DNA of 64,000 nt, from assembly GCA_037200925.1 (NCBI GenBank), contig JBBCGO010000001.1, forward strand, positions 9,552 through 73,551. Reading direction: 5' to 3'. Made by a program: the position numbers and the translations under genes. Below the pieces are notes generated by a model, which saw only the letters and a list, made by a program, of their open reading frames with translations, made no database searches and was not told where the DNA came from. Source of the stretch: Candidatus Doudnabacteria bacterium (lineage in GTDB: Bacteria > Patescibacteriota > Doudnabacteria > UBA920 > O2-02-FULL-48-8). This document shows positions 41,436 to 64,000 of the stretch, piece after piece. Position 1 is the stretch's first letter; every line of letters starts with the position of its first letter.

Positions 41436-43001
41436 ATGCCTCCAAAAGTAATCAAACTCGGCAAAAAAGACGACATAGCGTCAGTCATCAAGCAGATAAA
41501 ATCGCTCCGTGACCGTGAGGTTGTCTTTGAACTTATAAAAGGCTCGGTTTTGCTCTCAAGCTCAGATAATCTCAAACTTTTAAAAAGAACAGGTGAAGCT
41601 TTGGGGAAGACCATAAAAGTTTCTACCGATGACGAGATCGGCCGGATCCTCGCGAAAAAAGCCGGAGTGCTCTATGGCGACGCGGAAGTGAAGATGCCAA
41701 AAATCATGCCCCGCGTGGCGCGCAGCGACGTAAAGCCGCGGTTCTCCGATATCATGGGTTCACGAAAGATTTTCAGCAATGCCGTGGACCGCGCAATTAA
41801 TCCGGCGCCTGAAAGCCCGCCTGCAAAACTTCCAAGGGATAATGTCAGAAAAACCCGGTCATCCGGCAATTTTACAAAATTTTTCATTTTAGGATTGGTG
41901 ATACTGGTTGTTGCGGTTTTCGCCCTGGCAGTGCTTTTGCCCACAGCCACAGTCACCGTGTTTGCCCGCTCTGAACAGGTCACACGCGATCTGGAACTGA
42001 CGGTTGATAAAAATACCAGCTCCGCTGACCCTGATAATTTGCAAATAACAGGAATTCCAGTTGACCGCGAAGTTTCGCAAACCAAAAATTTTACCGCAAC
42101 CGGGGTACAGCTTGCAGGAACCAAGGCCACAGGGACAGTGACAATTTATAATTTTACGCCAAATATCCTGACTCTTCGTGCTGCAACTACGACACTGGTA
42201 ATGTCCGATAAAAAATATTTGTTCACCAAAGATGTAACGGGCATCAAGCCCAATGGCGTACCTAATCCTGGTATTCAGATCATTGCAGATCTGCCCGGAG
42301 AGGCCCAGAACCTGCCGGCAAACTCCAAGCTTCAGATCGTCAACCAAAAGCTGGGCAGCCAAAATGTCTATGCCGTAAACCCGGACGGTATCGGCGGCGG
42401 ACAGGCCACAAGCACCACGGTCTTATCCCAGGCGGACATTGATATGGCGGTTGCCAGTCTGACAAATGATATTGTGGCTCAGGCGGAATCAGACATGACG
42501 CAGGAGACGGGTTTTGCCGTAAAGCTCGTGCCTTCCGGGATCAAAACAGACATCCTGGCCAAAACGGCAAATAAAAATGTAGGCGATGAAGCGGACAGCT
42601 TTGCCATGACATTGATCGCCAAAGTCACAGGTTTGGGATTTAAGGACAGCGATGTGACGAGCATAGTGGTTTCTAAGATCAATCAAGTCCTGTCTTCCGA
42701 TAAATATCTTTTGGATAATGCGCAACGGCAATATACGGCGGAGTTTAAATCGATAGACATCCCAAACGGCCACGGGGTTTTGGCCGTGCACTTTGTGACC
42801 ACAGCCGCGTACAAAGTTGACCAAACAAATCTGGCCGGCATTTTGGCAGGCAAAAATGAAACCGAGATCAAGGAGATCCTTATGAGCAAGCCTGAGATAG
42901 ACAATGTCCAGGTGACATTCTGGCCGAGCTGGTTTACCCACAAAGCCCCGAGATTTAACGGGAAGATCTATATCAAGACTGAATTGAGCTCTAGTCAATA
43001 A
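41436..43001 (+). CDS. hypothetical single-pass membrane protein with a large extracytoplasmic domain
   Basis: 521 aa: N-terminal cytoplasmic segment, one TM (FFILGLVILVVAVFALAVLL), Thr-rich beta-rich ectodomain, no recognisable family. Confidence 0.5.
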   Translation: MPPKVIKLGKKDDIASVIKQIKSLRDREVVFELIKGSVLLSSSDNLKLLKRTGEALGKTIKVSTDDEIGRILAKKAGVLYGDAEVKMPKIMPRVARSDVKPRFSDIMGSRKIFSNAVDRAINPAPESPPAKLPRDNVRKTRSSGNFTKFFILGLVILVVAVFALAVLLPTATVTVFARSEQVTRDLELTVDKNTSSADPDNLQITGIPVDREVSQTKNFTATGVQLAGTKATGTVTIYNFTPNILTLRAATTTLVMSDKKYLFTKDVTGIKPNGVPNPGIQIIADLPGEAQNLPANSKLQIVNQKLGSQNVYAVNPDGIGGGQATSTTVLSQADIDMAVASLTNDIVAQAESDMTQETGFAVKLVPSGIKTDILAKTANKNVGDEADSFAMTLIAKVTGLGFKDSDVTSIVVSKINQVLSSDKYLLDNAQRQYTAEFKSIDIPNGHGVLAVHFVTTAAYKVDQTNLAGILAGKNETEIKEILMSKPEIDNVQVTFWPSWFTHKAPRFNGKIYIKTELSSSQ

Positions 43002-49344: not shown

Positions 49345-49497
49345 TAGGTTTCTTCAAGAATTTGTGACTATTATCAGAACGGTTGCTCCTTTGGTTTTTT
49401 CATTTCTCACTTGACAAAATAATAATTTCCGTTATAAAATACCTTACGTTTGCATAGAAACAGAGCAACAAAAATTAACATTAACAGCGAAAAAAAA

Positions 49498-52400
49498 ATG
49501 ACAACTCAAAACGGGTTTTTTCGAAAGTCGTTGTATATGTTTGCCATCGCCGCTTTGGTACTGAGCGGTTTTTTTGCGGGCGTTTCCCCGGCTTCGGCAA
49601 CCACCGGCACTTTCACCGCCACCCAGACCGTGGCGAATGTTCCAGCCTCCACAATTCCTTCCGTAACTTTTGCCGGAGGGTCTAACGCCGTAAACGGGGT
49701 TGTTCCGGCTGTAACTTTTGCCGGCGGCGCCAATGCAGTCACCAGCTCTATCCCATCCATCACTTTCGCGGGAGGAGTAAACGGCGTTGCTGCCACAGCT
49801 TCCACTACTATCCCGGCAGGTCTTGCTGCCAATGCCACTGACCATTCCATCACAATCGACGGAGTAGTGATCAACCTCGGCACAGCAGCTCAGAGTGCAG
49901 TTCAGGTAGCATCCACCATTGCCGGCACAAACTTTTCAACCGGTACCAGTTTTCTTGCCGATGGAGCGTATACGGTAAGCAATGTTGGCGCAACCGTGAC
50001 CTTTACCAGAACAGCCACCGGCACTGCCGGGAATAACGGCCTGACAATTGCTGATACTGATTTCACCTCTGTGAATGCAGCGGCTGCCAGCGCGACGGTC
50101 ATTGTACCGGCAGGCCTTGCTGCCAATGCCACTGACGAAATAATTATGATCGACGGAGTGAGTATTGATCTGGGCACCGCCGCTCAAACAGCAGTTCAGG
50201 TAGCCTCCACCATTGCCGGCAGTGACTTTTCAACCGGTACAAGCTATATGGCTGACGGAGCGTATACGGTAAGCAATGTTGGCGGTACCTCAGCCACAGT
50301 CACCTTTACCAGAACCGCCACCGGCACCGCGGGAAATGTAAACCTATTAGTTGCCGATGCCGATTATACGACTACAAACGGCGTTGCTGCCACAGCTTCC
50401 ACCACTATCCCGGCAGCTTTGCCTGCGAATGCAGCGGACCATTCAATTATGATCGACGGGGTGACCATTGATCTGGGAACAGGCATCAGAAGTGCTGCCA
50501 GTATCGGTGGGCTTATTGCTTCGACTGATTTTAGTTCCGGAACAAGTTTTCAGGCTGACGGGTCCTATACGGTAACTAATAATAACGCTGTCGTTACTTT
50601 TACGCGAGACAATACAGGCACTGCCGGCAATAACGGCCTGACAATTGCTGATGCTGATTTCACGGGCGGAGTCAGAGCAGCAAGGACGGTTACAGTGAAC
50701 AGTGTTCCTGCCAACGGGGTCAATCTCACCATTGGCACTTGTGTTATATCGTTTAACACCATAGCCACTGCTGACGCAGATTGCGGTAATAATAACGCGG
50801 GTATCAGAACCAGTGTAGACAATACTGCGGCTCTGGTTGCTGCGAGGCTGCGAACCTTGATTAATGTGTCTGATGTCGGGCATGGCGCTTTGACAGTGGC
50901 AGGCAGCGGCACAACCGCCAGCTTCACCACAACAGGTCCTGAAACTTCAGCTACTGTAATCACTGCTTCTCTGTCCGCGGGGGCGAGCATTATTCTGACC
51001 ACTGTTAATACTACGGGTGTTGTTTTTTCCACAGCCACGATCCCGGCCCTTACTTTTACGGGCGGAGTTACGCTTGTCACCAGCTCTCTTGTCCCGGTCG
51101 TTACTTTTGGAGGAGGCGTTGATATTGTCACCAGCTCTATCCCATCCATCACTTTCGCGGGAGGAGTAAACGGCGTGGCTGCCACAGCTTCCACTACTAT
51201 CCCGGCAGGTCTTGCTGCCAATGCCACTGACCATTCCATCACAATCGACGGAGTAGTGATCAACCTCGGCACAGCAGCTCAGAGTGCAGTTCAGGTAGCA
51301 TCCACCATTGCCGGCACAAACTTTTCAACCGGTACAAGCTATACGGCTGACGGAGCGTATACGGTAAGCAATGTTGGCGGTACCTCAGCCACAGTCACCT
51401 TTACCAGAACAGCCACCGGCACTGCCGGGAACAACGGTCTGACAATTGCTGATACTGACTATACCACCGTAAATGCAGTGACGGCGAGCGTCACAGTTAC
51501 AATAACCGATTCCCTGGCCGGCAATGCTAATGACCATTCAATTACCATAGACGGAGTAACCATTGATCTGGGAACATCCGCTTTGACCGCTAATCAAGTT
51601 GCGGCCGCGATCGCCGCCAATCCGTTCACAGGCAAAGATTACACCGTAACCAATCCCTCCGGCGCCAATCTTACTTTTACTAAGAATCTGGGAGGTACTG
51701 CCGGAAATGTTTCCCTGACGCTTCAAGATCCTTTATATACCAAAATTAACGCTGTGTCGGCAACGGTTACGGTTACAATACCTGCCGGCCTTGTGGCCAA
51801 TGCCACTGACCATGTGGTCATCATAGACGGAGTAACCATTGATCTGGGAACATCCGCTTTGACCGCTAATCAAGTTGCGGCCGCGATCGCCGCCAATCCG
51901 TTCACAGGCAAAGATTACACCGTAACCAATCCCTCCGGCGCCAATCTTACTTTTACTAAGAATCTGGGAGGTACTGCCGGAAATGTGGCGCTGACAATTC
52001 AGGATGCAAGTTATGGTGCAGTGGCTCAAGTGGCCACGTTCACACCCGCATCAGTGACCGCAACCGAAACATATAGGGCAACCATCAACGGGATAAATTA
52101 TGATTACCTGGCCGCCGGAGGAGATAATGTAGCAACAGTGGTAGCAGCACTAGCGCCTCTGATGGACGCAAACCCTGCTGTTGATTGTTCCCAAGACACC
52201 ACTAAGATCACCTGTGCCGCGAGCGTTGCAGGAACCGCCTTTACTTTTTCCGCAACAGTCATTTCCGGAGCAACTTTAAGTTCCGTTCACATTGGATCTA
52301 ACAACGCAAATCCAGCACAGGCAAAAGTCGGAGACATGGTGACTTTGACTTTCAGTTCTTCTGTGAGCATCCAGTCTGTTGTGGTTACGATCGCGGGTCA

Positions 52401-54600
52401 TCCGGTCACAGCTTCCGGTTCGGGCGCAGGTCCCTATACAGCCACGTACATGATGGCCACTGGTGATACGGAAGGCGCGGTTGCTTTCACGATTGATTTT
52501 ACGGATATGGCTAGCAACCCCGGGAGCACAGTTACGGGGACTACTGACGCGTCCAGTATAAATTTTGACAAAACGCCTCCCGCGACTCCGGTGATCACGT
52601 CGATCGCAGGCGATAATTTCATCAATAATTCAGAAAAAACGGCAATAGTCGTTCTGGGAACTGCTGAAGCCAACTCGTCAGTCAGCGTGTCTTTGGCCGG
52701 AGGCGCAACGGTTAACAGTATTGTTACTGCTGACGGTCTGGGCAATTTTACCGCAACGATAGACGGGACAACCCTGACCGATGGAACAATTACTCCTTCT
52801 GTGGTTGTCATGGATGCGGCCGGCAACGCAAGCGCGGCCGCAATGACGCCGACAGCCGTAAAAGACGTGGTGGCGCCTACGGCTTCGATCAGTTACTCCA
52901 TCCCATACGCAGTCAGGTCAGGAGATTCGCTCACAATTACGGCAACTTTCAGCGAACCAATATTGGATTCACCGGTAGTTAAATTGGCTATTTCCGGCAG
53001 CAATACTTTGGCTGCGGCGGATATGACCAAAACCGACGGCACTCATTACACATATGTGTTTACGGTCGGTTCAGGAGATGGTGCAGCATCCGTGGCATTA
53101 AGCGTTGGCACTGATGCTGCGGGCAACATTGTGGCTTCAACTCCTACAAACAACGCTGCATTTACAGTTAATAATACAACCCCGATCGTTCCTAACTCCG
53201 TAACTTTAAGCGATTCTACTACTCTGGATCTTTCTTCTGGCTTGGCTCCGCAGACGTCCGCTGATGTGAACGTTGAAGGTGTTGCTACAGTGAGTATGGT
53301 CAAATCAGTTCTCCTGCGCGGCGCCACCCTGGGCGATCCGGTCGTGATTAGCAATTCTGATCTGGCTGGGGTAAATGTCAGCATTCCGGACGGAACTACT
53401 ATTACCGGTCCCAACGGCTGGGATGGGAATATACTTCCGCCAAAGACCAATACGGACAGTTCCGGTACTCCGCCTTCCGGATTCCAAATAGGAAATAACA
53501 TTATAGAAGTCGGTTCCCTGGGGAATGTCCTGGTTTTAGATAGTCCCGTAACAATTACCGTCTCAAATGCCACAGCGCCGATCGGTTACCGCGCGGCCAA
53601 TACAACTATGTGGGTTGCTCTTCCTATGTGCACAGGAACTTATGCCAGCCCTGTTCCGGTAGCTTCACCAAATGCTTGTTGGATAACTAATGGCACTGAT
53701 ACGAAAATAGTTACTTTCCACTTCAGTACTTTTGCCGGATTGATCGCAGTGAGCACTGGAGGCGGTGGCGGCGGAGGGGGTGGCGGCGGCAGTGGCAACG
53801 GTATTTTGCCGCCCGTAGCAAGCTCAACTTCATCTTCGGTTCCAGGATTACCCTCCACGGGTAACGCGGTCACGACTCCCGCACCGGCTGGGGCGCATCC
53901 GAACGGAACGTTGATCTATGATGGCCAGACTTTTTATCTGATAAATAATGCGCAAAAGATCGGCTTCCGCGACCCCAATGAATTTGCCTCTTACGGCTAT
54001 AAATTCAGCCAAGGGGTACCGGCGAATGCTATAGATAAAGCTCTGCCAACTGCGCCGGATATTGCGAGAGCAATGGCAGGAACCTTAGTGATAGATGCCA
54101 GAGACAATATTACCGTTTATATGATAGGCACCGGCAGTACTGCAAGGGGCTTTACCTCTGCTGATGTATTCATGGCTTTGGGCTATAGTTTTGGGGGACT
54201 TCCGAGAATTAATTTGGCTGATTATCCTGTAGGACCTGTGATTGGTTCAACTACCGATGCTCATCCGGACGGCTCATTGGTTCTGGACGGCAATACCATT
54301 TGGTGGCTGCAAGGCGGACAAAAACAGGGATTTGAATCCATGGCAGTGTTCAACACCTACGGGTTCAGCCTGTCGCGGGTTGTTCCGGCGAACGATTCAG
54401 ACAGGGCAATACCGGAAGGCCCGATCGTGAAATTCAGGGACGGCACATTGATCAATGACGGGGTCAGTTACTACATAATTTCCGACGGCAAAAAACTGCA
54501 GTTCTCATCCGCGGCCGATCTGTCCAATAGGGGATACAAAACTTCCAACGCCGTGATGACCAGCCTGATCAATTACGAAGCAGGCGGAATGGTCCAGTAA
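49498..54600 (+). CDS. giant (~1,700 aa) secreted surface protein: tandem ~95-aa Thr/Ala/Gly-rich repeats, Ig-like domains, poly-Gly linker and four C-terminal ~40-aa repeats
   Basis: Signal peptide after the ATG at 49498. Internal near-identical DNA repeats (for example 49790-49950 with 51180-51340, and 51540-51720 with 51830-52010). A G11 linker near 53760. The C-terminal repeats are homologous to those at 19650-20361 and 21240-22109. Confidence 0.8.
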   Translation: MTTQNGFFRKSLYMFAIAALVLSGFFAGVSPASATTGTFTATQTVANVPASTIPSVTFAGGSNAVNGVVPAVTFAGGANAVTSSIPSITFAGGVNGVAATASTTIPAGLAANATDHSITIDGVVINLGTAAQSAVQVASTIAGTNFSTGTSFLADGAYTVSNVGATVTFTRTATGTAGNNGLTIADTDFTSVNAAAASATVIVPAGLAANATDEIIMIDGVSIDLGTAAQTAVQVASTIAGSDFSTGTSYMADGAYTVSNVGGTSATVTFTRTATGTAGNVNLLVADADYTTTNGVAATASTTIPAALPANAADHSIMIDGVTIDLGTGIRSAASIGGLIASTDFSSGTSFQADGSYTVTNNNAVVTFTRDNTGTAGNNGLTIADADFTGGVRAARTVTVNSVPANGVNLTIGTCVISFNTIATADADCGNNNAGIRTSVDNTAALVAARLRTLINVSDVGHGALTVAGSGTTASFTTTGPETSATVITASLSAGASIILTTVNTTGVVFSTATIPALTFTGGVTLVTSSLVPVVTFGGGVDIVTSSIPSITFAGGVNGVAATASTTIPAGLAANATDHSITIDGVVINLGTAAQSAVQVASTIAGTNFSTGTSYTADGAYTVSNVGGTSATVTFTRTATGTAGNNGLTIADTDYTTVNAVTASVTVTITDSLAGNANDHSITIDGVTIDLGTSALTANQVAAAIAANPFTGKDYTVTNPSGANLTFTKNLGGTAGNVSLTLQDPLYTKINAVSATVTVTIPAGLVANATDHVVIIDGVTIDLGTSALTANQVAAAIAANPFTGKDYTVTNPSGANLTFTKNLGGTAGNVALTIQDASYGAVAQVATFTPASVTATETYRATINGINYDYLAAGGDNVATVVAALAPLMDANPAVDCSQDTTKITCAASVAGTAFTFSATVISGATLSSVHIGSNNANPAQAKVGDMVTLTFSSSVSIQSVVVTIAGHPVTASGSGAGPYTATYMMATGDTEGAVAFTIDFTDMASNPGSTVTGTTDASSINFDKTPPATPVITSIAGDNFINNSEKTAIVVLGTAEANSSVSVSLAGGATVNSIVTADGLGNFTATIDGTTLTDGTITPSVVVMDAAGNASAAAMTPTAVKDVVAPTASISYSIPYAVRSGDSLTITATFSEPILDSPVVKLAISGSNTLAAADMTKTDGTHYTYVFTVGSGDGAASVALSVGTDAAGNIVASTPTNNAAFTVNNTTPIVPNSVTLSDSTTLDLSSGLAPQTSADVNVEGVATVSMVKSVLLRGATLGDPVVISNSDLAGVNVSIPDGTTITGPNGWDGNILPPKTNTDSSGTPPSGFQIGNNIIEVGSLGNVLVLDSPVTITVSNATAPIGYRAANTTMWVALPMCTGTYASPVPVASPNACWITNGTDTKIVTFHFSTFAGLIAVSTGGGGGGGGGGGSGNGILPPVASSTSSSVPGLPSTGNAVTTPAPAGAHPNGTLIYDGQTFYLINNAQKIGFRDPNEFASYGYKFSQGVPANAIDKALPTAPDIARAMAGTLVIDARDNITVYMIGTGSTARGFTSADVFMALGYSFGGLPRINLADYPVGPVIGSTTDAHPDGSLVLDGNTIWWLQGGQKQGFESMAVFNTYGFSLSRVVPANDSDRAIPEGPIVKFRDGTLINDGVSYYIISDGKKLQFSSAADLSNRGYKTSNAVMTSLINYEAGGMVQ

Positions 54601-56656: not shown

Positions 56657-57586
56657 ATGTCTAGGAAACGGCCGATGATCCTGGTTTGCCCTGTTTTTTT
56701 TCTCATTTTTTTCGGACTTTCCTGCTCCAACGACAAGCCGACCCCGACTCAACCTACGCCGGTTCAGGCTCCCACGCTCTCTATTGTTGGAAACTCAGAG
56801 ATTGTGGGCAAGGGGAAGATTTTGCAGCTGTTTGCATCCTACAAGACAAGCACGGGAGTTGCTCAGGATCAAACCAACGCCGCCAACTGGAGCTCATCAA
56901 ATGCTTTGGTGGCATCCGTGAGCAAGACAGGATTGGTGACGTCGGTAGGTTACGGGCAGGCAGATATTTCTGCCGCGTTCAGCGGCATAAGTGCACTGGT
57001 TTCGGTGAAAATATCTCAGCCTCCGCCGATCACGTTTACCGTTGAGTCCCAAGGCACGAATGCTTCCAGCGGGGTTGACGATTACGGGAGGGCAATTTTC
57101 AAAAGGAACGGCAAGATCTTCGCCGGCCGAGATCCCTCGGTAACAGGAGCGCTGTTCTCCGGTCGAGGATTCAATCTGGTCATTATAGATCCGCAGACTG
57201 GAGAAATGGCGGGACCAATAGCCACCTTTGATACATATATTTCACGAAGCACGGGTGCGGATGTTTCAGCCATGACTGCTTTCGTGAACGGATTGCCTTC
57301 CGGAGTAATTATCCTGGTGGGCGTAGAAGATGAAGCTGGTCTTACCAGTGATGATTTTTCCTGCTTGCCGAACCCGACTCCCGGTACGGTCTGCTGCCGC
57401 CCGCTAGGATATTCCTGGACTGAAAATTTACAGCGATTGTTCGAATCGCTCGGTGCCACACAACTGCGCCGCTATTGCTACCGCAACTCCTATGCCTTTA
57501 TTGCGATCAAGGGGCAAGGCGCAAAAGCGGAACAGTTGGTTAACGCTACGACAGCAATTGCTGCGTATACATTGACCCTGCCATAA
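56657..57586 (+). CDS. lipoprotein with Big_2 domain and C-terminal ILEI/PANDER (FAM3-like, GG-type) domain
   Basis: Lipobox FGLSCSN. Big_2 region ..NAANWSSSNALVASVSKTGLVTSVGYGQADISAAF. The C-terminal GRGFNLVIIDPQTGEMAGPIATFDTY..IILVGVEDEAGLTSDD..LFESLGATQLRRYCYRNSYAFIAIKGQG aligns to the FAM3/ILEI core. Confidence 0.6.
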   Translation: MSRKRPMILVCPVFFLIFFGLSCSNDKPTPTQPTPVQAPTLSIVGNSEIVGKGKILQLFASYKTSTGVAQDQTNAANWSSSNALVASVSKTGLVTSVGYGQADISAAFSGISALVSVKISQPPPITFTVESQGTNASSGVDDYGRAIFKRNGKIFAGRDPSVTGALFSGRGFNLVIIDPQTGEMAGPIATFDTYISRSTGADVSAMTAFVNGLPSGVIILVGVEDEAGLTSDDFSCLPNPTPGTVCCRPLGYSWTENLQRLFESLGATQLRRYCYRNSYAFIAIKGQGAKAEQLVNATTAIAAYTLTLP

Positions 57587-57670: not shown

Positions 57671-58048
57671 GCTTCTTAAGTAAGCGCGGCAGTCGCTCTC
57701 ATCGCAAGATGAGGGAGGAAAGTCCGAACACGTTGGTTGGATGGAATTCTCATGAGTTCATGCAACCTTAGGTAGCGGGTAATTCCCGTCGTGAGAGATC
57801 AAGAGATGCGAACAGTGACGCCTGATCAGAAATGAAAAGGCTCCTAAGCGATTAGGATGAAGCCAATGGTAACATTGGATTGAAACGGCTAAATTCTTAC
57901 CTAATAGTGCAATATCAAATAGGCTCTTAAATGAGCGGGTTGATAGCTTGAGGTGCGCAGCAATGCGTGTCCCAGATAGATGATTGCCTCTGCTTTGGGT
58001 AAAACCAAGGCAACAGACAGAATTCGGCTTACAACTTGCTTAGGAAGC
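57671..58048 (+). ncRNA. rnpB: RNase P RNA (bacterial type)
   Basis: Conserved P4 strands GAGGAAAGTCCGAACAC and ACAGACAGAATTCGGCTTA. A 5'/3' P1 pairing (GCTTCTTAAG/CTTAGGAAGC) is present. Length about 378 nt with its own promoter and terminator. Confidence 0.8.
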
Positions 58049-58058
58049 ATAAATATTG

Positions 58059-58084
58059 ATCCGATGGATAACCATCGGATTTTT
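58059..58084 (+). terminator. rho-independent terminator after rnpB
   Basis: ATCCGATGG..CCATCGGAT stem plus TTTT. Confidence 0.75.
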
Positions 58085-58141
58085 ATTGCTTTAATATGGC
58101 ACTTGAATTGCAGTATATTGAATGTTATGATTTAGAAGCTT

Positions 58142-58651
58142 ATGAAAAATGATCAAAAAATAATCATAGTGTTCTTGACAATAATTGCTTTGGCGCTCGG
58201 ATTTTTTGCTTATAAAAAAATGCACCCTCAGGCCAAAAGCATGCAATCCGCTCAAACCAACCAGAGTGCCCAGACCAATGCAAATACTAACAGCCAAACC
58301 GACGCACAGAAACTTTTGAATGTACCGGCGCCCAATGCCTCGGCAGATGAGATCACGCAGCATTCGCAATTGGCGGCCAAGCTGGCGGTGCTGGGCTCGG
58401 AAATTGAAGTGGGTGATTGCAAGTCCAAGCCGCTGGTTTTGCAGCTCAAGCAGGGGACTGCCTTTACATTAAAGAACAGCGGAGCATCCAAAGTGGGAAT
58501 TACTTTTGATAAAGACCACGTGGATTATGTTGATCCCGGAAAATCAACCGTTGTCAAAGCCTCTCTGGACCATGGGCCCGGTCTTTATGGTTATCGTTGT
58601 ATCACCAGTACGGCAAATGGCATCAGTGGTTTTGTCCTCGTTTCGCCGTAA
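58142..58651 (+). CDS. membrane-anchored cupredoxin-like small protein (degenerate copper site), paralog of 62472..63014
   Basis: N-terminal signal anchor and a Q/T/N-rich linker. The C-terminal beta-rich domain ends GPGLYGYRCITSTANGISGFVLV, following the plastocyanin-type G.Y.Y.C...G.xG.V.V pattern, but the second His and the Met are absent. Confidence 0.5.
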   Translation: MKNDQKIIIVFLTIIALALGFFAYKKMHPQAKSMQSAQTNQSAQTNANTNSQTDAQKLLNVPAPNASADEITQHSQLAAKLAVLGSEIEVGDCKSKPLVLQLKQGTAFTLKNSGASKVGITFDKDHVDYVDPGKSTVVKASLDHGPGLYGYRCITSTANGISGFVLVSP

Positions 58652-58736
58652 GTCCGACCTCTAGCTTGCATTTAGGATTTGAAATCATGGCTTGAAACCC
58701 ATGATTTTTTGTGGCATAATTAGGCCAAAGAAATAA

Positions 58737-60011
58737 ATGAAGAAACTAAATTATCAGGAGAATAAGGTCTTTATTCTGGCGGCAGGGTTTTTGGCCGTTG
58801 TGATCCTTTTATTTATAGGAATTTTGGCCGGCGGACGCATTAATTTTCATTTTAAACCGCATAACAATTTAGCTTCCTCAACTGATAATTACTCGGAATT
58901 GGATGCCATCCGCGGCCAAAACCAGGATTTCGGCCAGCTAACTGTTTTTTTCAAGGACTTGGCAAATAAAAAAGGCGGTGAATACGCTTACAAAGCCTTG
59001 GCTTTCGCCGCCAACTCCAATTATCTGGCGCCGAATATCGATACTCATTTGCTCGGCCATGTTGTCGGCGATGTTTTATTCGCCCAGGAAGGCCTGGACG
59101 GGATCAAAGTCTGCACCAATGATCTGCGCAATGCCTGTTCCCATTCCATCGTTGTCGGGGCCTTGCTTACACAAGGGCTTGGCGCGCTTCCCAAAGCGGT
59201 TGAGACGTGCCATTTGGCGCCGGGCGGTAGCGGCGCTTACACCATGTGCGTGCATGGTCTGGGTCATGGGGTTTTGGCATATACGAATTACGATATGAAA
59301 AAAGCCATTCAGTTGTGCGACAAGGTCGGGCAGCCGGTTATGAGCAGTCAGGAATATGCCCAGTGCACCGGAGGCGTTACCATGGAAATGATGGCCGGCA
59401 TACATGACCCGGTGGCCTGGGCCAAGCAAACTCCGTATTATTTCAGCAAGACCGATCCGCTGTCGCCCTGCGACATGTCATTCATGCCGGCGGCTGCCCA
59501 GCCCATGTGCTATAACTATCTGACTCCGCATTTGTTCCAGATGGCAGGTGCGGACCTGGGAAATCCGGGTCCGAAAGATTTTGAAAAGGCTTTTACTTTC
59601 TGCGCGAAACTGCCGGTTTCAAATAGAGTAAACTGGGATAATTGTTATGGCGGTTTCGGGAAGGAATTCCCGGTTTTGGTCAACGGCAGGAATGTTGAAA
59701 ATGTGCAGGACCTGGACGACGCCAAACTTAAAACGGTCTACAGCTGGTGCCAATTGGCCAAGGTCAGTGCCGGTGTGACTGACTGCATGAATTCAGCTCT
59801 TTCGTCGCTTTATTGGGGAGGGGAGAACAATCGCGACGTGGCGATCAGGTTTTGCAATGCGGTCAGTGATGCGCAAAACCAATCTCTGTGTTTTACATCT
59901 CTTTCCGGAGCCGTTTCTTACTACATCCAGGACCATTCATACCGGGAGAGTTACTGCTCTGAGATCCCGCAGGCTTATCAGACAGATTGCCGGCGATTGC
60001 TGCTCTTATAA
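58737..60011 (+). CDS. Cys/His-rich membrane-anchored protein, paralog A (repeated C-x-H-x2-G-H motifs)
   Basis: N-terminal TM. Motifs include THLLGHVVGD, CSHSIVVGAL and CHLAPGG..CVHGLGHGVL, with more than 20 Cys. Paralogous to the next two genes. Confidence 0.5.
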   Translation: MKKLNYQENKVFILAAGFLAVVILLFIGILAGGRINFHFKPHNNLASSTDNYSELDAIRGQNQDFGQLTVFFKDLANKKGGEYAYKALAFAANSNYLAPNIDTHLLGHVVGDVLFAQEGLDGIKVCTNDLRNACSHSIVVGALLTQGLGALPKAVETCHLAPGGSGAYTMCVHGLGHGVLAYTNYDMKKAIQLCDKVGQPVMSSQEYAQCTGGVTMEMMAGIHDPVAWAKQTPYYFSKTDPLSPCDMSFMPAAAQPMCYNYLTPHLFQMAGADLGNPGPKDFEKAFTFCAKLPVSNRVNWDNCYGGFGKEFPVLVNGRNVENVQDLDDAKLKTVYSWCQLAKVSAGVTDCMNSALSSLYWGGENNRDVAIRFCNAVSDAQNQSLCFTSLSGAVSYYIQDHSYRESYCSEIPQAYQTDCRRLLLL

Positions 60012-60030
60012 TTTTTTAGCGGATTTCTAA

Positions 60031-61281
60031 ATGCCAGATCTGAAAACCAAATTAAATTCCATCGGGTCAGTTTTGATCAGGAATTTTTTTGCAATTTCAT
60101 TATGCCTGATAATACTCGTCATTGCCGGGGAGATTACTGTTTTGACCTATAAAAAACATCCGGTAGGAACGGATCGTGAGACTTCTTCGCTGAATAATTA
60201 TGCGGACCAGATCATTGGCAAATGCAGTGATGAACGGTATCATCCCGCCTGCTACGATAAGGAAATTCCCAAACTTATGGATGTTATTTCCATGGAAGAC
60301 GCTTTCAAGGTCACGGCGATAATCCAAAGCAAAGACAGCACGTACCCTTATTGCCACGTGCTTGGCCACGAGCTCAGCGCCCGCGAAGTCGATAAAGATC
60401 CCACCAAATGGAAGGATGTTATAGCCAGGCTCCCGTCCGGGGTTTGCTCCAACGGCGGCATTCACGGGGCCCTGCAGGAAGAATTCCGTTCGGAAACATT
60501 TACGCCAAAGCAGGTTGCGAAGATCAAACCGGAGTTGGTCGATCTTTGCGAAAAGCGCGCGTCCTGGAATCCTACCGGCCTGGAACAGGGTTCCTGCTAT
60601 CACGCCCTGGGTCATTTGACCATGTATCTGACCAATGCCGATATTCCCAGTTCCGTCGCCATGTGCAACGAACTTGCCAAAAAACCCGACGGCCGCGATT
60701 ATTCCGAGCTTTGCTACGACGGGGCATTTATGCAGATCTTCCAGCCGCTGGAGCCTGAGGATAAAGAGTTAATTGCGGGCAAAGAAGTAAAAGAAGGCCA
60801 TCTTACCGCCTATTGCGAGCAGTTTACAGGCAATGTCAGAAGTTCCTGCTGGAGCGAGGGCTGGCCTTTGGTTTATAATCAGATAATGCAGCCGCAGGGA
60901 TTGGTCGCGCATTGTTCGGACAAAATTTTGCAAAGCCCTGACGATTCTGACCGGTGTTTTTTGTCGCTGTTCTATATTGTAACGGCCCAAATGAGCCTTG
61001 ACGGGAACTTGCTGGATAAGTTCTGTTCAGCCCTGCCGGCGAAATTCAGCGGGCAATGCTATTCTGATGCGGCGGGGCGCATGGTAGAAACTGATTATAA
61101 AAATATTCCGACGGCCGTGCAATTCTGCGGAAGCGCCAGCACTGCGGTCGACCAGCAGGCATGTTACGGTGATCTGGTCAGATATTCAACCTATAATTTT
61201 CATAGCGGGTCAGAGCAATTCAACAATCTGTGCAACAATATGCCCGAGGATTGGAAAACCAGATGTTTCGCAAATTCCTGA
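60031..61281 (+). CDS. Cys/His-rich membrane-anchored protein, paralog B
   Basis: N-terminal TM. Motifs CHVLGHELS, CSNGGIHGAL and CYHALGHLTMY in the same positions as in paralog A. Confidence 0.5.
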   Translation: MPDLKTKLNSIGSVLIRNFFAISLCLIILVIAGEITVLTYKKHPVGTDRETSSLNNYADQIIGKCSDERYHPACYDKEIPKLMDVISMEDAFKVTAIIQSKDSTYPYCHVLGHELSAREVDKDPTKWKDVIARLPSGVCSNGGIHGALQEEFRSETFTPKQVAKIKPELVDLCEKRASWNPTGLEQGSCYHALGHLTMYLTNADIPSSVAMCNELAKKPDGRDYSELCYDGAFMQIFQPLEPEDKELIAGKEVKEGHLTAYCEQFTGNVRSSCWSEGWPLVYNQIMQPQGLVAHCSDKILQSPDDSDRCFLSLFYIVTAQMSLDGNLLDKFCSALPAKFSGQCYSDAAGRMVETDYKNIPTAVQFCGSASTAVDQQACYGDLVRYSTYNFHSGSEQFNNLCNNMPEDWKTRCFANS

Positions 61282-62363
61282 CCAAGAACAATCTTATAAT
61301 CTTTTTATGCCTGATCATCTTCTCAACACTGCTGGCCATTTTTGCCTTAAGCAGCAGGCATCCGAAATCCGCGCCAATCCAGGCTTTTAACGTGGATCAG
61401 GAACTCAGCACGCTTTCAAAACAAAACACAGGCGATCTGTTTAAACCCATCCGCGATAATTTGAAGGAGCTGATGAAACGAGGAGGCATTGACGGATCAA
61501 TTCAGCTGACGGACAAAGCATTTGTAGCAGGCCTGATCCCGCTGGATGAATGCCATAGTTTGATGCATTTGATCGGGCACGCCGCATATGAATACAGCAA
61601 CGAGGACTTTCACCCCATCGTCAGCAAAGACAGCAATAAGTGCGTGGCCTCGTTTCAGCACGGCGTAGAAGCCCAGATCGTTGAGAGCAAGGTCAATATC
61701 ATGCAGGCCGTGCCGGAACTGAAGGATTATTGCGCGGCTTTGCGGCAGGTTTTACCCGGGATCACATGCTATCACGGCGCAGGCCACGGTACGATGAGAA
61801 TTACCCACGTTGCGGCCAAATCATTGCAGTTATGCGATGCGCTTGCCGGCGGACCGGAAACCGATCTGTCTGACTGCTATCGCGGAGTGTTCAGCGAGTA
61901 CGGCAACATGGCTCTCAACTATGACGGCGACACGGGTGAATATATTCCGACCCCATCCACGGTTACATACGATTCGAAACATCCGTTGCTGACTTGCCAG
62001 ACGTATGCAGCTAAATATCAGGATGCGTGCTATTCGCAGCTGACAAAAATAGTTTATCAGGGCTCGGATATAGAAGGTACATACAAAAATTGCCAGGATC
62101 CGAAGTATACCAGGTCAGCCCAATTAACCTGCACGCGGATCATTTCGGGAATTTACTCCGAGCAGACGTTATATAAAAATGATTTTGTAGCAGCGCCCAA
62201 GATCATTTCAACCATGTCAAAGGATTTCAGGGATGTTTATGTTTCGGGGATAAAACTGGGCTTTCTTTCGTACAGCACCAGCGGAGTGCGGAAGGATTGG
62301 CAAAAAAGCTGCAATCAGCTCCAAGTCTCGGACCGTCAGCGCTGCCTTGCAGCTTATGAATAG
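61263..62363 (+). CDS. Cys/His-rich membrane-anchored protein, paralog C
   Basis: The start is set at MFRKFLTKNNLIIFLCLIIF (signal anchor), 19 nt before the paralog B stop. Motifs HLIGHAAYEY, CVASFQHGVEAQ and CYHGAGHGTMRIT. Confidence 0.5.
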   Translation: MFRKFLTKNNLIIFLCLIIFSTLLAIFALSSRHPKSAPIQAFNVDQELSTLSKQNTGDLFKPIRDNLKELMKRGGIDGSIQLTDKAFVAGLIPLDECHSLMHLIGHAAYEYSNEDFHPIVSKDSNKCVASFQHGVEAQIVESKVNIMQAVPELKDYCAALRQVLPGITCYHGAGHGTMRITHVAAKSLQLCDALAGGPETDLSDCYRGVFSEYGNMALNYDGDTGEYIPTPSTVTYDSKHPLLTCQTYAAKYQDACYSQLTKIVYQGSDIEGTYKNCQDPKYTRSAQLTCTRIISGIYSEQTLYKNDFVAAPKIISTMSKDFRDVYVSGIKLGFLSYSTSGVRKDWQKSCNQLQVSDRQRCLAAYE

Positions 62364-62471
62364 GATTATACCGGCTGTGGATAATTGATTTTGCGCAGTT
62401 AAGGCATGAGTGTTATGATATAAGCCTATTGATATCTGCTTGAAACATTAAATAAAATTAAAAAGCAAAGT

Positions 62472-63014
62472 ATGAAAACAACGCAAAAAACAATCTTGGC
62501 GATCCTCGTCATAGCCATTTTAGTGGTGGGATATTTATTGTTTAACAAGCTGTCAACCGGCGGCCCCGCAAGCAATCCTGCGCCAAGCGGCCAAAATCCG
62601 GGAACTTCCACGCCTGTCTATAAAGCTCCAACCGTTTCAAAAGCGACCGCAGATGTATTAAAACAGCTGTCCACCAGCGCCAGCCAGAGCATCACCCCGC
62701 AGCAGATCAAAGACTATAGCGATAAAGTCGCGGCAGTTGCCGTCACTTCACCCGTCCTTGATGTGACCGGCTGCACCGCCACACCGAATGTATTAAAATA
62801 CAACGATAAAACAACTGTTACGGTCCAGAATAAGGACACTGTTGCCCATACTCTCACATACGGTCCGTCTGATAAAGTAGTTACTCTGTACAGCGCTCCG
62901 GCGCAGTCGGTAAAATCCGTGACGTTAAATATTCTTTCAGGCCCCGGGATCTACGGTTATCTTTGCGACAAGCAAGGCCCGGCCGGAATGTTGCTGGTAG
63001 TAGCAAGCCAATAA
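62472..63014 (+). CDS. membrane-anchored cupredoxin-like small protein, paralog of 58142..58651
   Basis: Signal anchor and a Pro/Ser/Thr linker. The C-terminal domain carries ..TVTVQNKDTVAHTLTY.. (like the plastocyanin N-terminal His strand) and GPGIYGYLCDKQGPAGMLLVV. Cys and Met are present, but the C-terminal His ligand is replaced. Confidence 0.5.
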   Translation: MKTTQKTILAILVIAILVVGYLLFNKLSTGGPASNPAPSGQNPGTSTPVYKAPTVSKATADVLKQLSTSASQSITPQQIKDYSDKVAAVAVTSPVLDVTGCTATPNVLKYNDKTTVTVQNKDTVAHTLTYGPSDKVVTLYSAPAQSVKSVTLNILSGPGIYGYLCDKQGPAGMLLVVASQ

Positions 63015-63030
63015 TTCCCGTTCCGATTAT

Positions 63031-63067
63031 AAAACCGTAAATAAATAATTTACGGTTTTATTTTTTG
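63031..63067 (+). terminator. rho-independent terminator
   Basis: AAAACCGTAA..TTACGGTTTT stem followed by ATTTTTT. Confidence 0.75.
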
Positions 63068-63094: not shown

Positions 63095-63247
63095 ATGTTT
63101 GAATCGATCAAACAAATTTTTACTTTACTTTCTAAGTCAAAAAAGATCTGGCTGATCCCTTTGCTTTTACTGCTGATAATAATCGCTTTGCTGATCATCA
63201 CCGCCCAAATTTCCGTTGTTCCTATTTTTTTGTATCCATTTGTATGA
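63095..63247 (+). CDS. small single-TM membrane protein (50 aa)
   Basis: MFESIKQIFTLLSKSKKIWLIPLLLLLIIIALLIITAQ.. It is not in the ORF track. It overlaps the next small ORF by ATGA and sits directly upstream of a carbamoyltransferase. Confidence 0.3.
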   Translation: MFESIKQIFTLLSKSKKIWLIPLLLLLIIIALLIITAQISVVPIFLYPFV

Positions 63248-63432
63248 AGAAAGCCGTTAAACTGATAAACGATATTTTTATCGCCTTCATATTGTTGATT
63301 TTTTACTTCATTTTTGTGGGCGTATTTTTTGTTATTGTCCGGTTTTTAAATTCTCAAAATAAAAAAGCCGGCTCTTTCTGGCTTACCGATGATGAAAAAT
63401 CGGCCGGCTTTGATCTGGATTCCGCTTACTAA
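63244..63432 (+). CDS. small single-TM membrane protein (62 aa)
   Basis: Hydrophobic core IFIAFILLIFYFIFVGVFFVIV, coupled to its neighbours. Confidence 0.3.
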   Translation: MKKAVKLINDIFIAFILLIFYFIFVGVFFVIVRFLNSQNKKAGSFWLTDDEKSAGFDLDSAY

Positions 63433-63435
63433 TAC

Positions 63436-64000
63436 ATGAATATCCTCGGTATTTCCGCGTTTTATCATGACAGTGCGGCGGTAATTTTGAAGGACGGGGA
63501 AATCCTGTGCGCGGCAGAGGAGGAGAGGTTCACACGAATTAAGCACGATAACCAATTCCCGTTCAAATCGGTTGAGTTTTGCCTAAAGCATTCGGGATTG
63601 TCCATCGGTAATATCGATCGCGTCGCCTATTATGAAAAACCCTTAAAAAAGTTCGAAAGGATACTTGAAAATTTTATTCAAACTTATCCTTTTTCATATG
63701 AGCAGTTTGTCAAAGGGATCCCCGAATGGCTGGGTAATAAGATAAGGGTTGAGAAAATAATAAAAAAAGAACTGGGTTTTTCCGGTAAAGTCCTGTTCGT
63801 TCCGCATCATTTGTCGCATGCTGCGGCCGCTTTTTTTTCGTCGGGACATGAGCAGTGCGCCATTCTTACCGTAGACGGAGTCGGAGAATATCAGACGACC
63901 TGTTTATGGACCGGAAATAAGAACCAGATCACTTTGCTTAAATCCCTGGATTATCCTGATTCTTTGGGTTTGCTGTATTCAACTTTTACTGCGTTTTTGG
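63436..64000 (+). CDS. carbamoyltransferase (NodU/CmcH family), N-terminal part (continues beyond the window)
   Basis: MNILGISAFYHDSAAVILKDGEILCAAEEERFTRIKHD.. is the Kae1/YgjD-like N-terminal domain of carbamoyltransferases. There is no stop codon before the window edge. Confidence 0.75.
   Translation, partial: MNILGISAFYHDSAAVILKDGEILCAAEEERFTRIKHDNQFPFKSVEFCLKHSGLSIGNIDRVAYYEKPLKKFERILENFIQTYPFSYEQFVKGIPEWLGNKIRVEKIIKKELGFSGKVLFVPHHLSHAAAAFFSSGHEQCAILTVDGVGEYQTTCLWTGNKNQITLLKSLDYPDSLGLLYSTFTAFL

Follow-up and report, generated by a model that had tools for sequence, protein, structure and literature searches.

We analysed a 64,000-nucleotide stretch of DNA from Candidatus Doudnabacteria (positions 1-64,000, hereafter the window), in which five consecutive plus-strand genes, labelled S1, L1, L2, L3 and S2 in their order, encode small (S) and large (L) proteins with an N-terminal membrane anchor. 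This five-gene cluster represents, in compact form, a multi-gene system that is found across Patescibacteria. In BLASTP comparisons S1 and S2 present themselves as paralogs (E=4e-14, 27% identity), and the same is true for L1, L2 and L3 among each other (pairwise E-values of 1e-8, 2e-7 and 2e-10). An earlier interpretation, made without database searches and here called the sequence-only reading, had described five co-oriented genes with flanking terminators, an anchor on every product, and paralogy both of the first and last genes and of the three genes between them, and each of these points was confirmed. The genes and the features that bound them are the following.

57677-58046, plus strand: rnpB (bacterial RNase P class A; Rfam RF00010, 101.5 bits versus a gathering score of 100), the upstream boundary, outside the system
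58058-58081, plus strand: terminator-like hairpin 3' of rnpB, 10-bp stem followed by a T-run
58103-58131, plus strand: promoter-like site TTGAAT-17-TATGAT with TG upstream, 11 nt 5' of the S1 start; consensus match only
58142-58651, plus strand: S1, 169 amino acids (aa); anchor at residues 6-24, low-confidence Q/N/S/T linker, two helices, cupredoxin sandwich at residues 82-168
58737-60011, plus strand: L1, 424 aa; anchor at residues 11-29, helical-repeat ectodomain
60031-61281, plus strand: L2, 416 aa; anchor at residues 20-38, ectodomain of about 18 helices in helix-loop-helix repeats
61263-62363, plus strand: L3, 366 aa from the ATG at 61263 (public gene call), 377 aa in the longest open reading frame (ORF), from the GTG at 61230; anchored
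62472-63014, plus strand: S2, 180 aa; anchor at residues 7-25, linker, cupredoxin domain
63029-63061, plus strand: terminator-like hairpin that closes the five-gene unit, 14-bp stem followed by a T-run

The five ORFs can be taken as real genes, because L1, L2 and S2 are 100% identical to the NCBI proteins WDN47_00350, WDN47_00355 and WDN47_00365 of a Candidatus Doudnabacteria metagenome-assembled genome with a contig of 964 kb, and because a first search with L2 gave 656 homologs, many of them 50-80% identical. From S1 to S2, successive genes are spaced by 85, 19, -19 and 108 nt. Each of the five proteins contains a single N-terminal hydrophobic 19-mer with a mean Kyte-Doolittle hydropathy of 2.4-3.1 and no second such segment, and the charge bias around this anchor favours an N-in, C-out orientation for L1, L2, L3 and S2.

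Distribution and array organisation

A profile of the L family was searched against 1.84 billion representative proteins, with matches clustered at 50% identity, and this yielded 4,323 clusters at E≤1e-3 and 1,783 at E≤1e-10. A scan of GTDB species genomes gave 77 L loci, all patescibacterial in appearance. Their lineages include Nomura-, Colwell-, Yanofsky-, Taylor-, Kaiser-, Giovannoni-, Gottesman-, Davies- and Doudnabacteria; the labels 'Gammaproteobacteria', 'Verrucomicrobiia' and 'Acidimicrobiales', which were assigned automatically to some of the 77 loci, are doubtful. L genes are organised in same-strand arrays (458 of 474 labelled genes), with 1-12 L genes per locus and a median of 5.

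Four L orthogroups, L1, Lx, L2 and L3, recur across classes at 40-64% identity and with their order kept, Lx being an L form of about 350 aa that is not in this window. The usual order of an array is S - L1 - (Lx) - L2 - further members. L1 orthologs with 44-57% identity occupy the same position in other loci, and the nearest relative, in which L2 is 79% identical, has the order S - L1 - L2 - S - L3 - L3 - Cup2, where Cup2 denotes a second type of cupredoxin that is described below. The arrangement of the cluster, for which the sequence-only reading had proposed a synteny check, is therefore kept in related genomes, and much larger versions exist elsewhere among the 77 loci.

L domains are also found in natural fusions, namely L2+Lx, Cup2+L+L, giant proteins with 4-7 tandem L domains, and Wzy_C (O-antigen-ligase-like) joined to L2. 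An example of the last kind is P0195 (813 aa), with a Wzy_C membrane domain and an L2-type domain, which is full length in four sequences and several assemblies. The giant proteins are exemplified by P0197, which has 3580 aa and seven tandem L domains and is encoded on an 831-kb contig.

The cluster is not self-contained in its own genome either. The Logan contig L085, which is identical in sequence, runs past window position 64000 (window coordinate = L085 + 55400) and carries two further cupredoxin-L fusion genes outside the window, 3-6 kb downstream of S2.

L085:10791-12308: cupredoxin-L fusion of 505 aa, 3.2 kb beyond S2
L085:13369-14826: cupredoxin-L fusion of 485 aa, 5.8 kb beyond S2

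Both fusions begin with a Cys-less cupredoxin domain of the pattern FWPASD.HPTH ... YH[ND]H. L3 is the counterpart of the L domain in cupredoxin-L fusion proteins found elsewhere, but has no cupredoxin domain. Two GDSL-lipase-like genes lie on the opposite strand between the two fusion genes, which are followed by a gene for a 354-aa TPR protein. In a literature search on Parcubacteria and Patescibacteria, no description of the L family or of the cluster was found.

The large proteins

In the structural model of L2 (37 sequences; predicted local distance difference test score, pLDDT, 91.6) the anchor is followed by about 18 ectodomain helices that form an all-helical alpha-solenoid. The three L proteins are anchored alpha-solenoids of helix-loop-helix repeats, in agreement with the alpha-helical repeat architecture that had been suspected from their sequences. 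The repeat unit is made of a helix with Cys at its end, a loop that is 8-30 residues long, and a helix starting with Cys-[YFW]-x-x-[GA].

The L family has no curated family in the libraries searched (Pfam-A, NCBIfam, PDB sequences and structural neighbours), just as the sequence-only reading had been unable to assign the large proteins to one. Pfam-A and NCBIfam scans of L1, L2 and L3 gave no match, and a Pfam scan of 37 L-family members at E≤5 gave no consistent weak match, with none to Sel1, TPR or HEAT. Sequence and profile searches of the PDB for L found no match at E≤10, and Foldseek with the L model returned nothing at E≤1e-3. The M75 domain of EfeO was considered as the identity of L and rejected on the basis of the fold.

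Contrary to the more than 20 Cys per large protein that had been counted earlier, the totals are 16 in L1, 19 in L2 and 13 in L3. The ectodomain Cys fall into sequential pairs, eight in L1, nine in L2 (18 Cys) and six in L3 (12 Cys). Conservation of Cys and His was counted in an alignment of 309 L domains from the 77 loci, using L2 numbering. Here, the Cys residues 295 and 309 are both kept in 231 domains, both lost in 77 and split in only one, and the positions 401/412 and 65/74 show the same kind of co-loss. Of 366 proteins, 326 have an even number of ectodomain Cys, and DsbA-like genes flank the L cluster in 8 of the loci. In addition, MdbA-like oxidoreductases and VKOR are enriched in genomes of the candidate phyla radiation (CPR) (PMC6744442). 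Because adjacent pairs are lost together, Cys numbers are mostly even, DsbA-like genes occur as neighbours and CPR genomes are rich in MdbA and VKOR, the Cys of L appear to be disulfide staples rather than metal ligands, and it is probable that each repeat contains one disulfide that closes its loop. The Cys/His motifs had been put forward as metal features, and of this view the conserved His remain, whereas the Cys, being gained and lost in adjacent pairs, are not plausible as ligands. Cys-based metal binding after the manner of Csp-type copper storage proteins or metallothionein was rejected for L, in which the Cys occur as co-varying pairs at the ends of the helices instead of along their length.

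One disulfide per helical repeat is a mark of Helicobacter Hcp and other Sel1-like proteins, and the co-loss of adjacent Cys and the even counts in L would agree with such an arrangement. However, none of the 37 L-family members matched the Sel1 profile at E≤5, and the Cys spacing, which is short and fixed in Hcp, varies between 8 and 30 residues in L. From Sel1-like proteins and HEAT, ARM, TPR and PPR solenoids alike, L differs by its five-His cluster, its membrane anchor and its genomic link to cupredoxins.

The conserved His are H104, H108, H136, H173 and H177 in L1 (motifs HLLGH, CSHS and CVHGLGHG), H109, H113, H145, H191 and H195 in L2, where they are encoded within nt 60352-60615, and H109, H113, H144, H182 and H186 in L3 (numbered from the GTG start). 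H191 and H195 are present in all 309 domains, and H109 and H113 in 98-100% of the L1, L2 and cupredoxin-L domains. The fifth His is located on the intervening repeat helix, at Cys+6 in L2 and L3 and at Cys+2 in L1, on the same helix face. All five occur at the N-terminal ends of equivalent helices in three consecutive repeats, under highly conserved loops. Since equivalent helices of a solenoid pack side by side, the five His likely line one pocket. Every sequence motif quoted in the sequence-only reading is present, and its recurring C-x-H-x2-G-H motif is real. It is, however, not a dedicated motif: CHVLGH, CYHALGH, CVHGLGHG and CYHGAGHG are starts of repeat helices that happen to carry a conserved His.

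The cupredoxin-fold proteins and other partners

The AlphaFold2 model of S1 (22-sequence alignment, pLDDT 86) consists of an anchor helix, a disordered linker rich in Q, N, S and T, two helices, and a beta-sandwich at residues 82-168; the S proteins have the Greek-key beta-sandwich of cupredoxins. The list given with the S1 model comprises FtrB 8vuk (11.0), purple cupredoxin 5fc9 (10.3), Cupredoxin_1 4hcf (10.2), CupA 4f2e (10.0), nitrosocyanin (9.7), EfeO (9.7), amicyanin (9.5) and plastocyanin (8.9). When the S family profile was compared with PDB sequences, it matched 4hcf with E=4.9e-4 and plastocyanin with E=9e-4. The beta-sandwich of the model and these profile matches uphold the earlier view of the small proteins as cupredoxin-like. 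S1 and S2 thus each consist of an N-terminal anchor, a flexible stalk and a cupredoxin-fold domain with a degenerate type-1 copper site, and as new, divergent members they extend the cupredoxin superfamily. The profile match to 4hcf suggests a distant homology of S to Cupredoxin_1 (PF13473), against whose gathering threshold of 27 bits S1 reaches 16.1 bits (E=0.011), S2 gives no match, and S relatives and Cup2-type domains score 15-21 bits; Pfam and NCBIfam scans of the S proteins gave nothing beyond this sub-threshold match.

The alignments to 4hcf and plastocyanin place C153 of S1 and C165 of S2 at the position of the type-1 Cys ligand. The first type-1 His position is occupied by Val in S1, by His126, the sole His of the protein, in S2, and by His in many of the 49 S-family members. 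None of these 49 proteins has the second His ligand, for which S2 has Gln. The axial Met position, at Cys+8, is M173 in S2, as in plastocyanin, and Phe in S1. Accordingly, S1 has lost the His, His and Met ligands and kept the Cys alone, and the complete set His...Cys-x(n)-His-x(n)-Met is present in neither protein, so that the partial loss of copper ligands noted earlier is borne out.

The most conserved feature of S is a pair of Cys residues that is invariant in the 49 proteins (C93 and C153 in S1, C101 and C165 in S2). The second invariant Cys (C93/C101) aligns four residues before a conserved Pro, with plastocyanin Leu12 (Leu13 in the Chlamydomonas sequence). Leu12 of plastocyanin belongs to the hydrophobic patch beside the exposed His ligand, at the copper-site end of the fold. 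The alignment thus suggests that this Cys, too, is positioned at the copper-site end, and by analogy with CupA the remaining Cys-(His)-Cys-(Met) set may represent a thiolate-type metal site.

With type-1 blue copper proteins (plastocyanin, amicyanin and pseudoazurin) S shares the fold and the C-terminal pattern 'Y-x-Y-x-C ... G-M-x-x-V', and S2 also shares the His, the Cys and the Met at Cys+8. S differs from them in that the second His is absent, in S1 together with the first His and the Met, and in that it has an extra invariant Cys, an anchor, and a stalk with two extra helices. The incomplete type-1 ligand set is common to S and the non-blue cupredoxins (Cupredoxin_1 4hcf, the FtrB and EfeO Cup domains, and CupA), although the sequence matches of S to these are marginal (sub-threshold in Pfam, profile E of about 5e-4). 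A parallel in layout is CupA, in which the cupredoxin is likewise mounted on an N-terminal transmembrane helix and has a bis-thiolate site loosely like the conserved Cys pair at the copper-site end of S (PMC7558416). However, CupA combines the bis-thiolate with a Met-rich binuclear Cu(I) site, whereas S has two invariant Cys that are 60 residues apart and no Cys-x-Met-x-Met. The second Cys of S, at the plastocyanin Leu12 position, is presumably in the first strand-turn and not where CupA has its Cys. Moreover, CupA faces the cytoplasm and S is predicted to face outward, and CupA has CopA as a partner, whereas no P-type ATPase is found in the window flank or among the recurrent neighbours.

A cupredoxin gene or domain is present in 69 of the 77 L loci. 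It may be of the S type, as in this window, or of the Cys-less type Cup2, whose motifs WPAS..HPxH and [YF]H[DN]H are present in 39 and 37, respectively, of 40 stand-alone copies. The Asp of Cup2 aligns with the Cys ligand of amicyanin, and the resulting set of four His and one Asp resembles, by analogy, Cys-to-Asp type-2 sites. Cup2 occurs alone or N-terminal to L3-type proteins, being found in 63-64 of 70 cupredoxin-L fusions of at least 420 aa. In 21 loci it is adjoined by H1, a protein of about 170 aa with a beta-rich body, whose signal peptide is predicted to end immediately ahead of a His and whose C-terminal anchor bears a basic tail (for example L035:8107-8601, L065:9860-10348 and L019:12916-13458); H1 was always found next to Cup2. 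With the predicted cleavage, the N-terminal His of the mature protein is the sole His of some H1 copies. A mature N-terminal His is typical of copper 'histidine brace' proteins, and H1 may be a metal binder of this type.

In 9 loci the L arrays also adjoin a multi-pass membrane protein that is about 320 aa long and contains several conserved His, together with a single-pass partner of 160 aa, sometimes in tandem copies (for example L019:8215-9650, L017:2-3788 and L072:2823-5351). Pfam assigned no family to H1, the multi-pass protein or its 160-aa partner. A tblastn search of the window for DsbA-like, H1, GT-C and other recurrent neighbour proteins found nothing.

Proposed function, rival explanations and flanking sequence

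We propose that the five genes encode a membrane-tethered, multi-subunit system for extracytoplasmic metal handling, probably of copper, and we put the probability of this prediction at about 0.45. Our confidence is high in the structural description and moderate to low in the metal-handling function; the extracytoplasmic location itself is very probable. The five gene products would form a membrane-tethered complex facing the cell exterior, in which the five conserved His of L would constitute one metal-binding pocket. The L paralogs would be distinct subunits of one hetero-oligomer, serving as acceptor or effector proteins, and a common complex is suggested for the L orthogroups because of their natural fusions and the short or overlapping spacing of the genes. 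The S proteins would act as metal carriers or adaptors, comparable to the non-blue CupA, EfeO-Cup and FtrB, and not as blue-copper electron carriers, and the cupredoxins would pass metal to or from the His cluster of L. With this scheme L could be an enzyme, a metal buffer or a scavenging surface, each of which is compatible.

By analogy, copper is our best guess for the metal, because the partners have copper-binding folds, S keeps thiolate, His and Met residues, Cup2 has its His/Asp set and H1 its mature N-terminal His. Precedents for such sites exist, as FtrB binds Cu(II) through Asp and His without a His-His-Cys site (PMC11966278), and the copper chaperone CupA, a cupredoxin anchored in the membrane, has a bis-thiolate site (PMC7558416). 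Of the extracytoplasmic surface redox or metal-handling module that the sequence-only reading had envisaged, the metal-handling half has become the best-fitting interpretation, and the redox half, in the sense of a blue-copper role, is unlikely.

It should be noted that several observations weigh against this proposal. The charge bias at the S1 anchor is ambiguous and does not settle the orientation of this protein. The Pfam cupredoxin matches are all below threshold, and the two invariant Cys of S may form a simple disulfide. The closeness of the five His derives from repeat geometry and that of C93 and C153 from the alignment to plastocyanin, and His-only sites would suit Zn, Ni or Fe as well. 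Furthermore, no copper transporter, CopA, CopC/CopD or Ftr1/EfeU permease is present in the window or as a recurrent neighbour, and the GT-C glycosyltransferase of some loci points, together with the Wzy_C-L2 fusion, towards envelope glycan work.

This last point belongs to the most serious rival, namely a structural role as envelope scaffold or an accessory role in adhesion or glycan assembly. The L solenoids would then be non-catalytic scaffolds or substrate-binding modules, like the TPR domains appended to GT-C glycosyltransferases, with a structural His cluster (for example for Zn) and with cupredoxins as Ig-like spacers. Such a role would be in keeping with the L fold, which is a generic alpha-solenoid like those of HEAT, ARM and PPR proteins, with the giant tandem proteins, and with the recurrence of the Wzy_C-L2 fusion in several assemblies. 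It is also favoured by a PMT_2-like GT-C gene inside the cluster in 6 of the 77 loci, and by the fact that a repetitive surface protein is the commonest unlabelled neighbour (22 loci). Spacers are hard to square, however, with the finding that each of the three beta-sandwich families of the arrays keeps metal-type residues at the canonical site. Likewise, invariance of the five His extends over ancient paralogs that retain only 20-28% identity elsewhere on their surfaces, and the association with cupredoxins is far more frequent than that with glycosyltransferases. We therefore consider a scaffold role doubtful.

A second rival would make the cluster an iron-acquisition module of the EfeO/FtrAB type, in which the cupredoxins are Cu-dependent ferroxidases and the helical L binds iron, as is thought for the Cup and M75 domains of EfeO. 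Indeed, EfeO is an extracytoplasmic protein in which a cupredoxin at the N-terminus precedes an all-helical domain bearing conserved His, which is the domain logic of the L fusions in this genome and in others, and FtrB, for which acidic iron-binding residues are described, both binds Cu(II) via Asp/His and oxidises Fe(II) (PMC11966278). Nevertheless, the helical domain of L is not M75- or imelysin-like by fold or sequence, and L matches no PDB chain in sequence. Neither an Ftr1/EfeU-type permease nor an EfeB peroxidase nor FtrA/FtrD was found in the window, in L085 or among the recurrent neighbours of the 77 loci, and this reading is improbable.

A cell-surface electron-transfer chain, with S1 and S2 as blue-copper shuttles to a redox-active L, is less probable still. 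The cupredoxin fold of S, its sequence resemblance to plastocyanin and amicyanin, and the His, Cys and Met retained by S2 would fit such a chain. However, blue-copper electron transfer by S1 and S2 is unlikely from their residues, because neither has a complete His-Cys-His-Met site, and the full set is present in no S or Cup2 protein, S1 retaining only the Cys and Cup2 having Asp in its place. In addition, L contains no heme, Fe-S or flavin motif and its Cys behave as disulfide pairs, and no quinol- or NADH-linked partner is encoded nearby. The notion of a dedicated oxidative-folding set, in which the Cys pair of S, as a redox-active disulfide, helps to form or isomerise the 6-9 disulfides of each L, draws on the invariance of the two S Cys, the disulfide-rich L proteins and the DsbA-like genes beside some clusters, but it is the least credible of all, as S has no thioredoxin fold or CxxC motif, its Cys are 60 residues apart, and the conserved His of S2-type members, Cup2, H1 and L would be left unexplained.

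Returning to metal handling, a bolder form of the proposal holds that L is a new Patescibacteria-specific class of disulfide-stapled metalloproteins with a His cluster. With dedicated degenerate cupredoxins, and elsewhere also the N-terminal-His protein, it would form a conserved cell-surface machine, acting as an enzyme complex that depends on copper or as an apparatus for metal scavenging, and episymbionts with reduced genomes would need it to live on or off their hosts. We regard this extended version as unlikely. The L family and the whole cluster match no curated family and, generic solenoids aside, no solved structure.

A large part of bacterial diversity is accounted for by Patescibacteria (CPR), whose genomes are tiny. 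To our knowledge, most conserved lineage-specific CPR genes have no known function. L arrays often take up 5-12 genes of a genome of about 1 Mb, amid housekeeping genes. If copper or another metal is indeed handled at the cell surface by these proteins, this would be an unrecognised part of CPR physiology, and it would imply a new metal-site architecture on a helical-repeat scaffold as well as new non-blue branches of the cupredoxins. The testable proposal is one of disulfide-held surface proteins with a five-His site and cupredoxin partners.

In the window, the neighbours of the cluster are the housekeeping genes for S13, S4, RpoA, S9, AlaRS and TypA. The rnpB gene at the upstream boundary barely exceeds the Rfam gathering threshold, which suggests a divergent rnpB of the CPR type. 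Directly 5' of it, positions 56657-57586 (plus strand) encode a lipoprotein-like protein of 309 aa with Big_2 and ILEI (FAM3C, 'interleukin-like EMT inducer', where EMT is epithelial-mesenchymal transition) domains (Pfam 1.6e-16). Further upstream on the same strand, a 1716-aa ORF at 49450-54600, between the ribosomal-protein/RpoA block and TypA, has no Pfam match at E≤1e-3, and a 521-aa ORF at 41436-43001 has a weak, sub-threshold Baseplate_J-like match (E=3.4e-4). Right past the terminator of the cluster, at 63095-64000 (plus strand), genes for a 50-aa DUF5989 protein and a 62-aa hydrophobic protein are followed by the start of a carbamoyltransferase gene (Carbam_trans_N, 1.3e-41), and the membrane peptides and the carbamoyltransferase may share one small operon.

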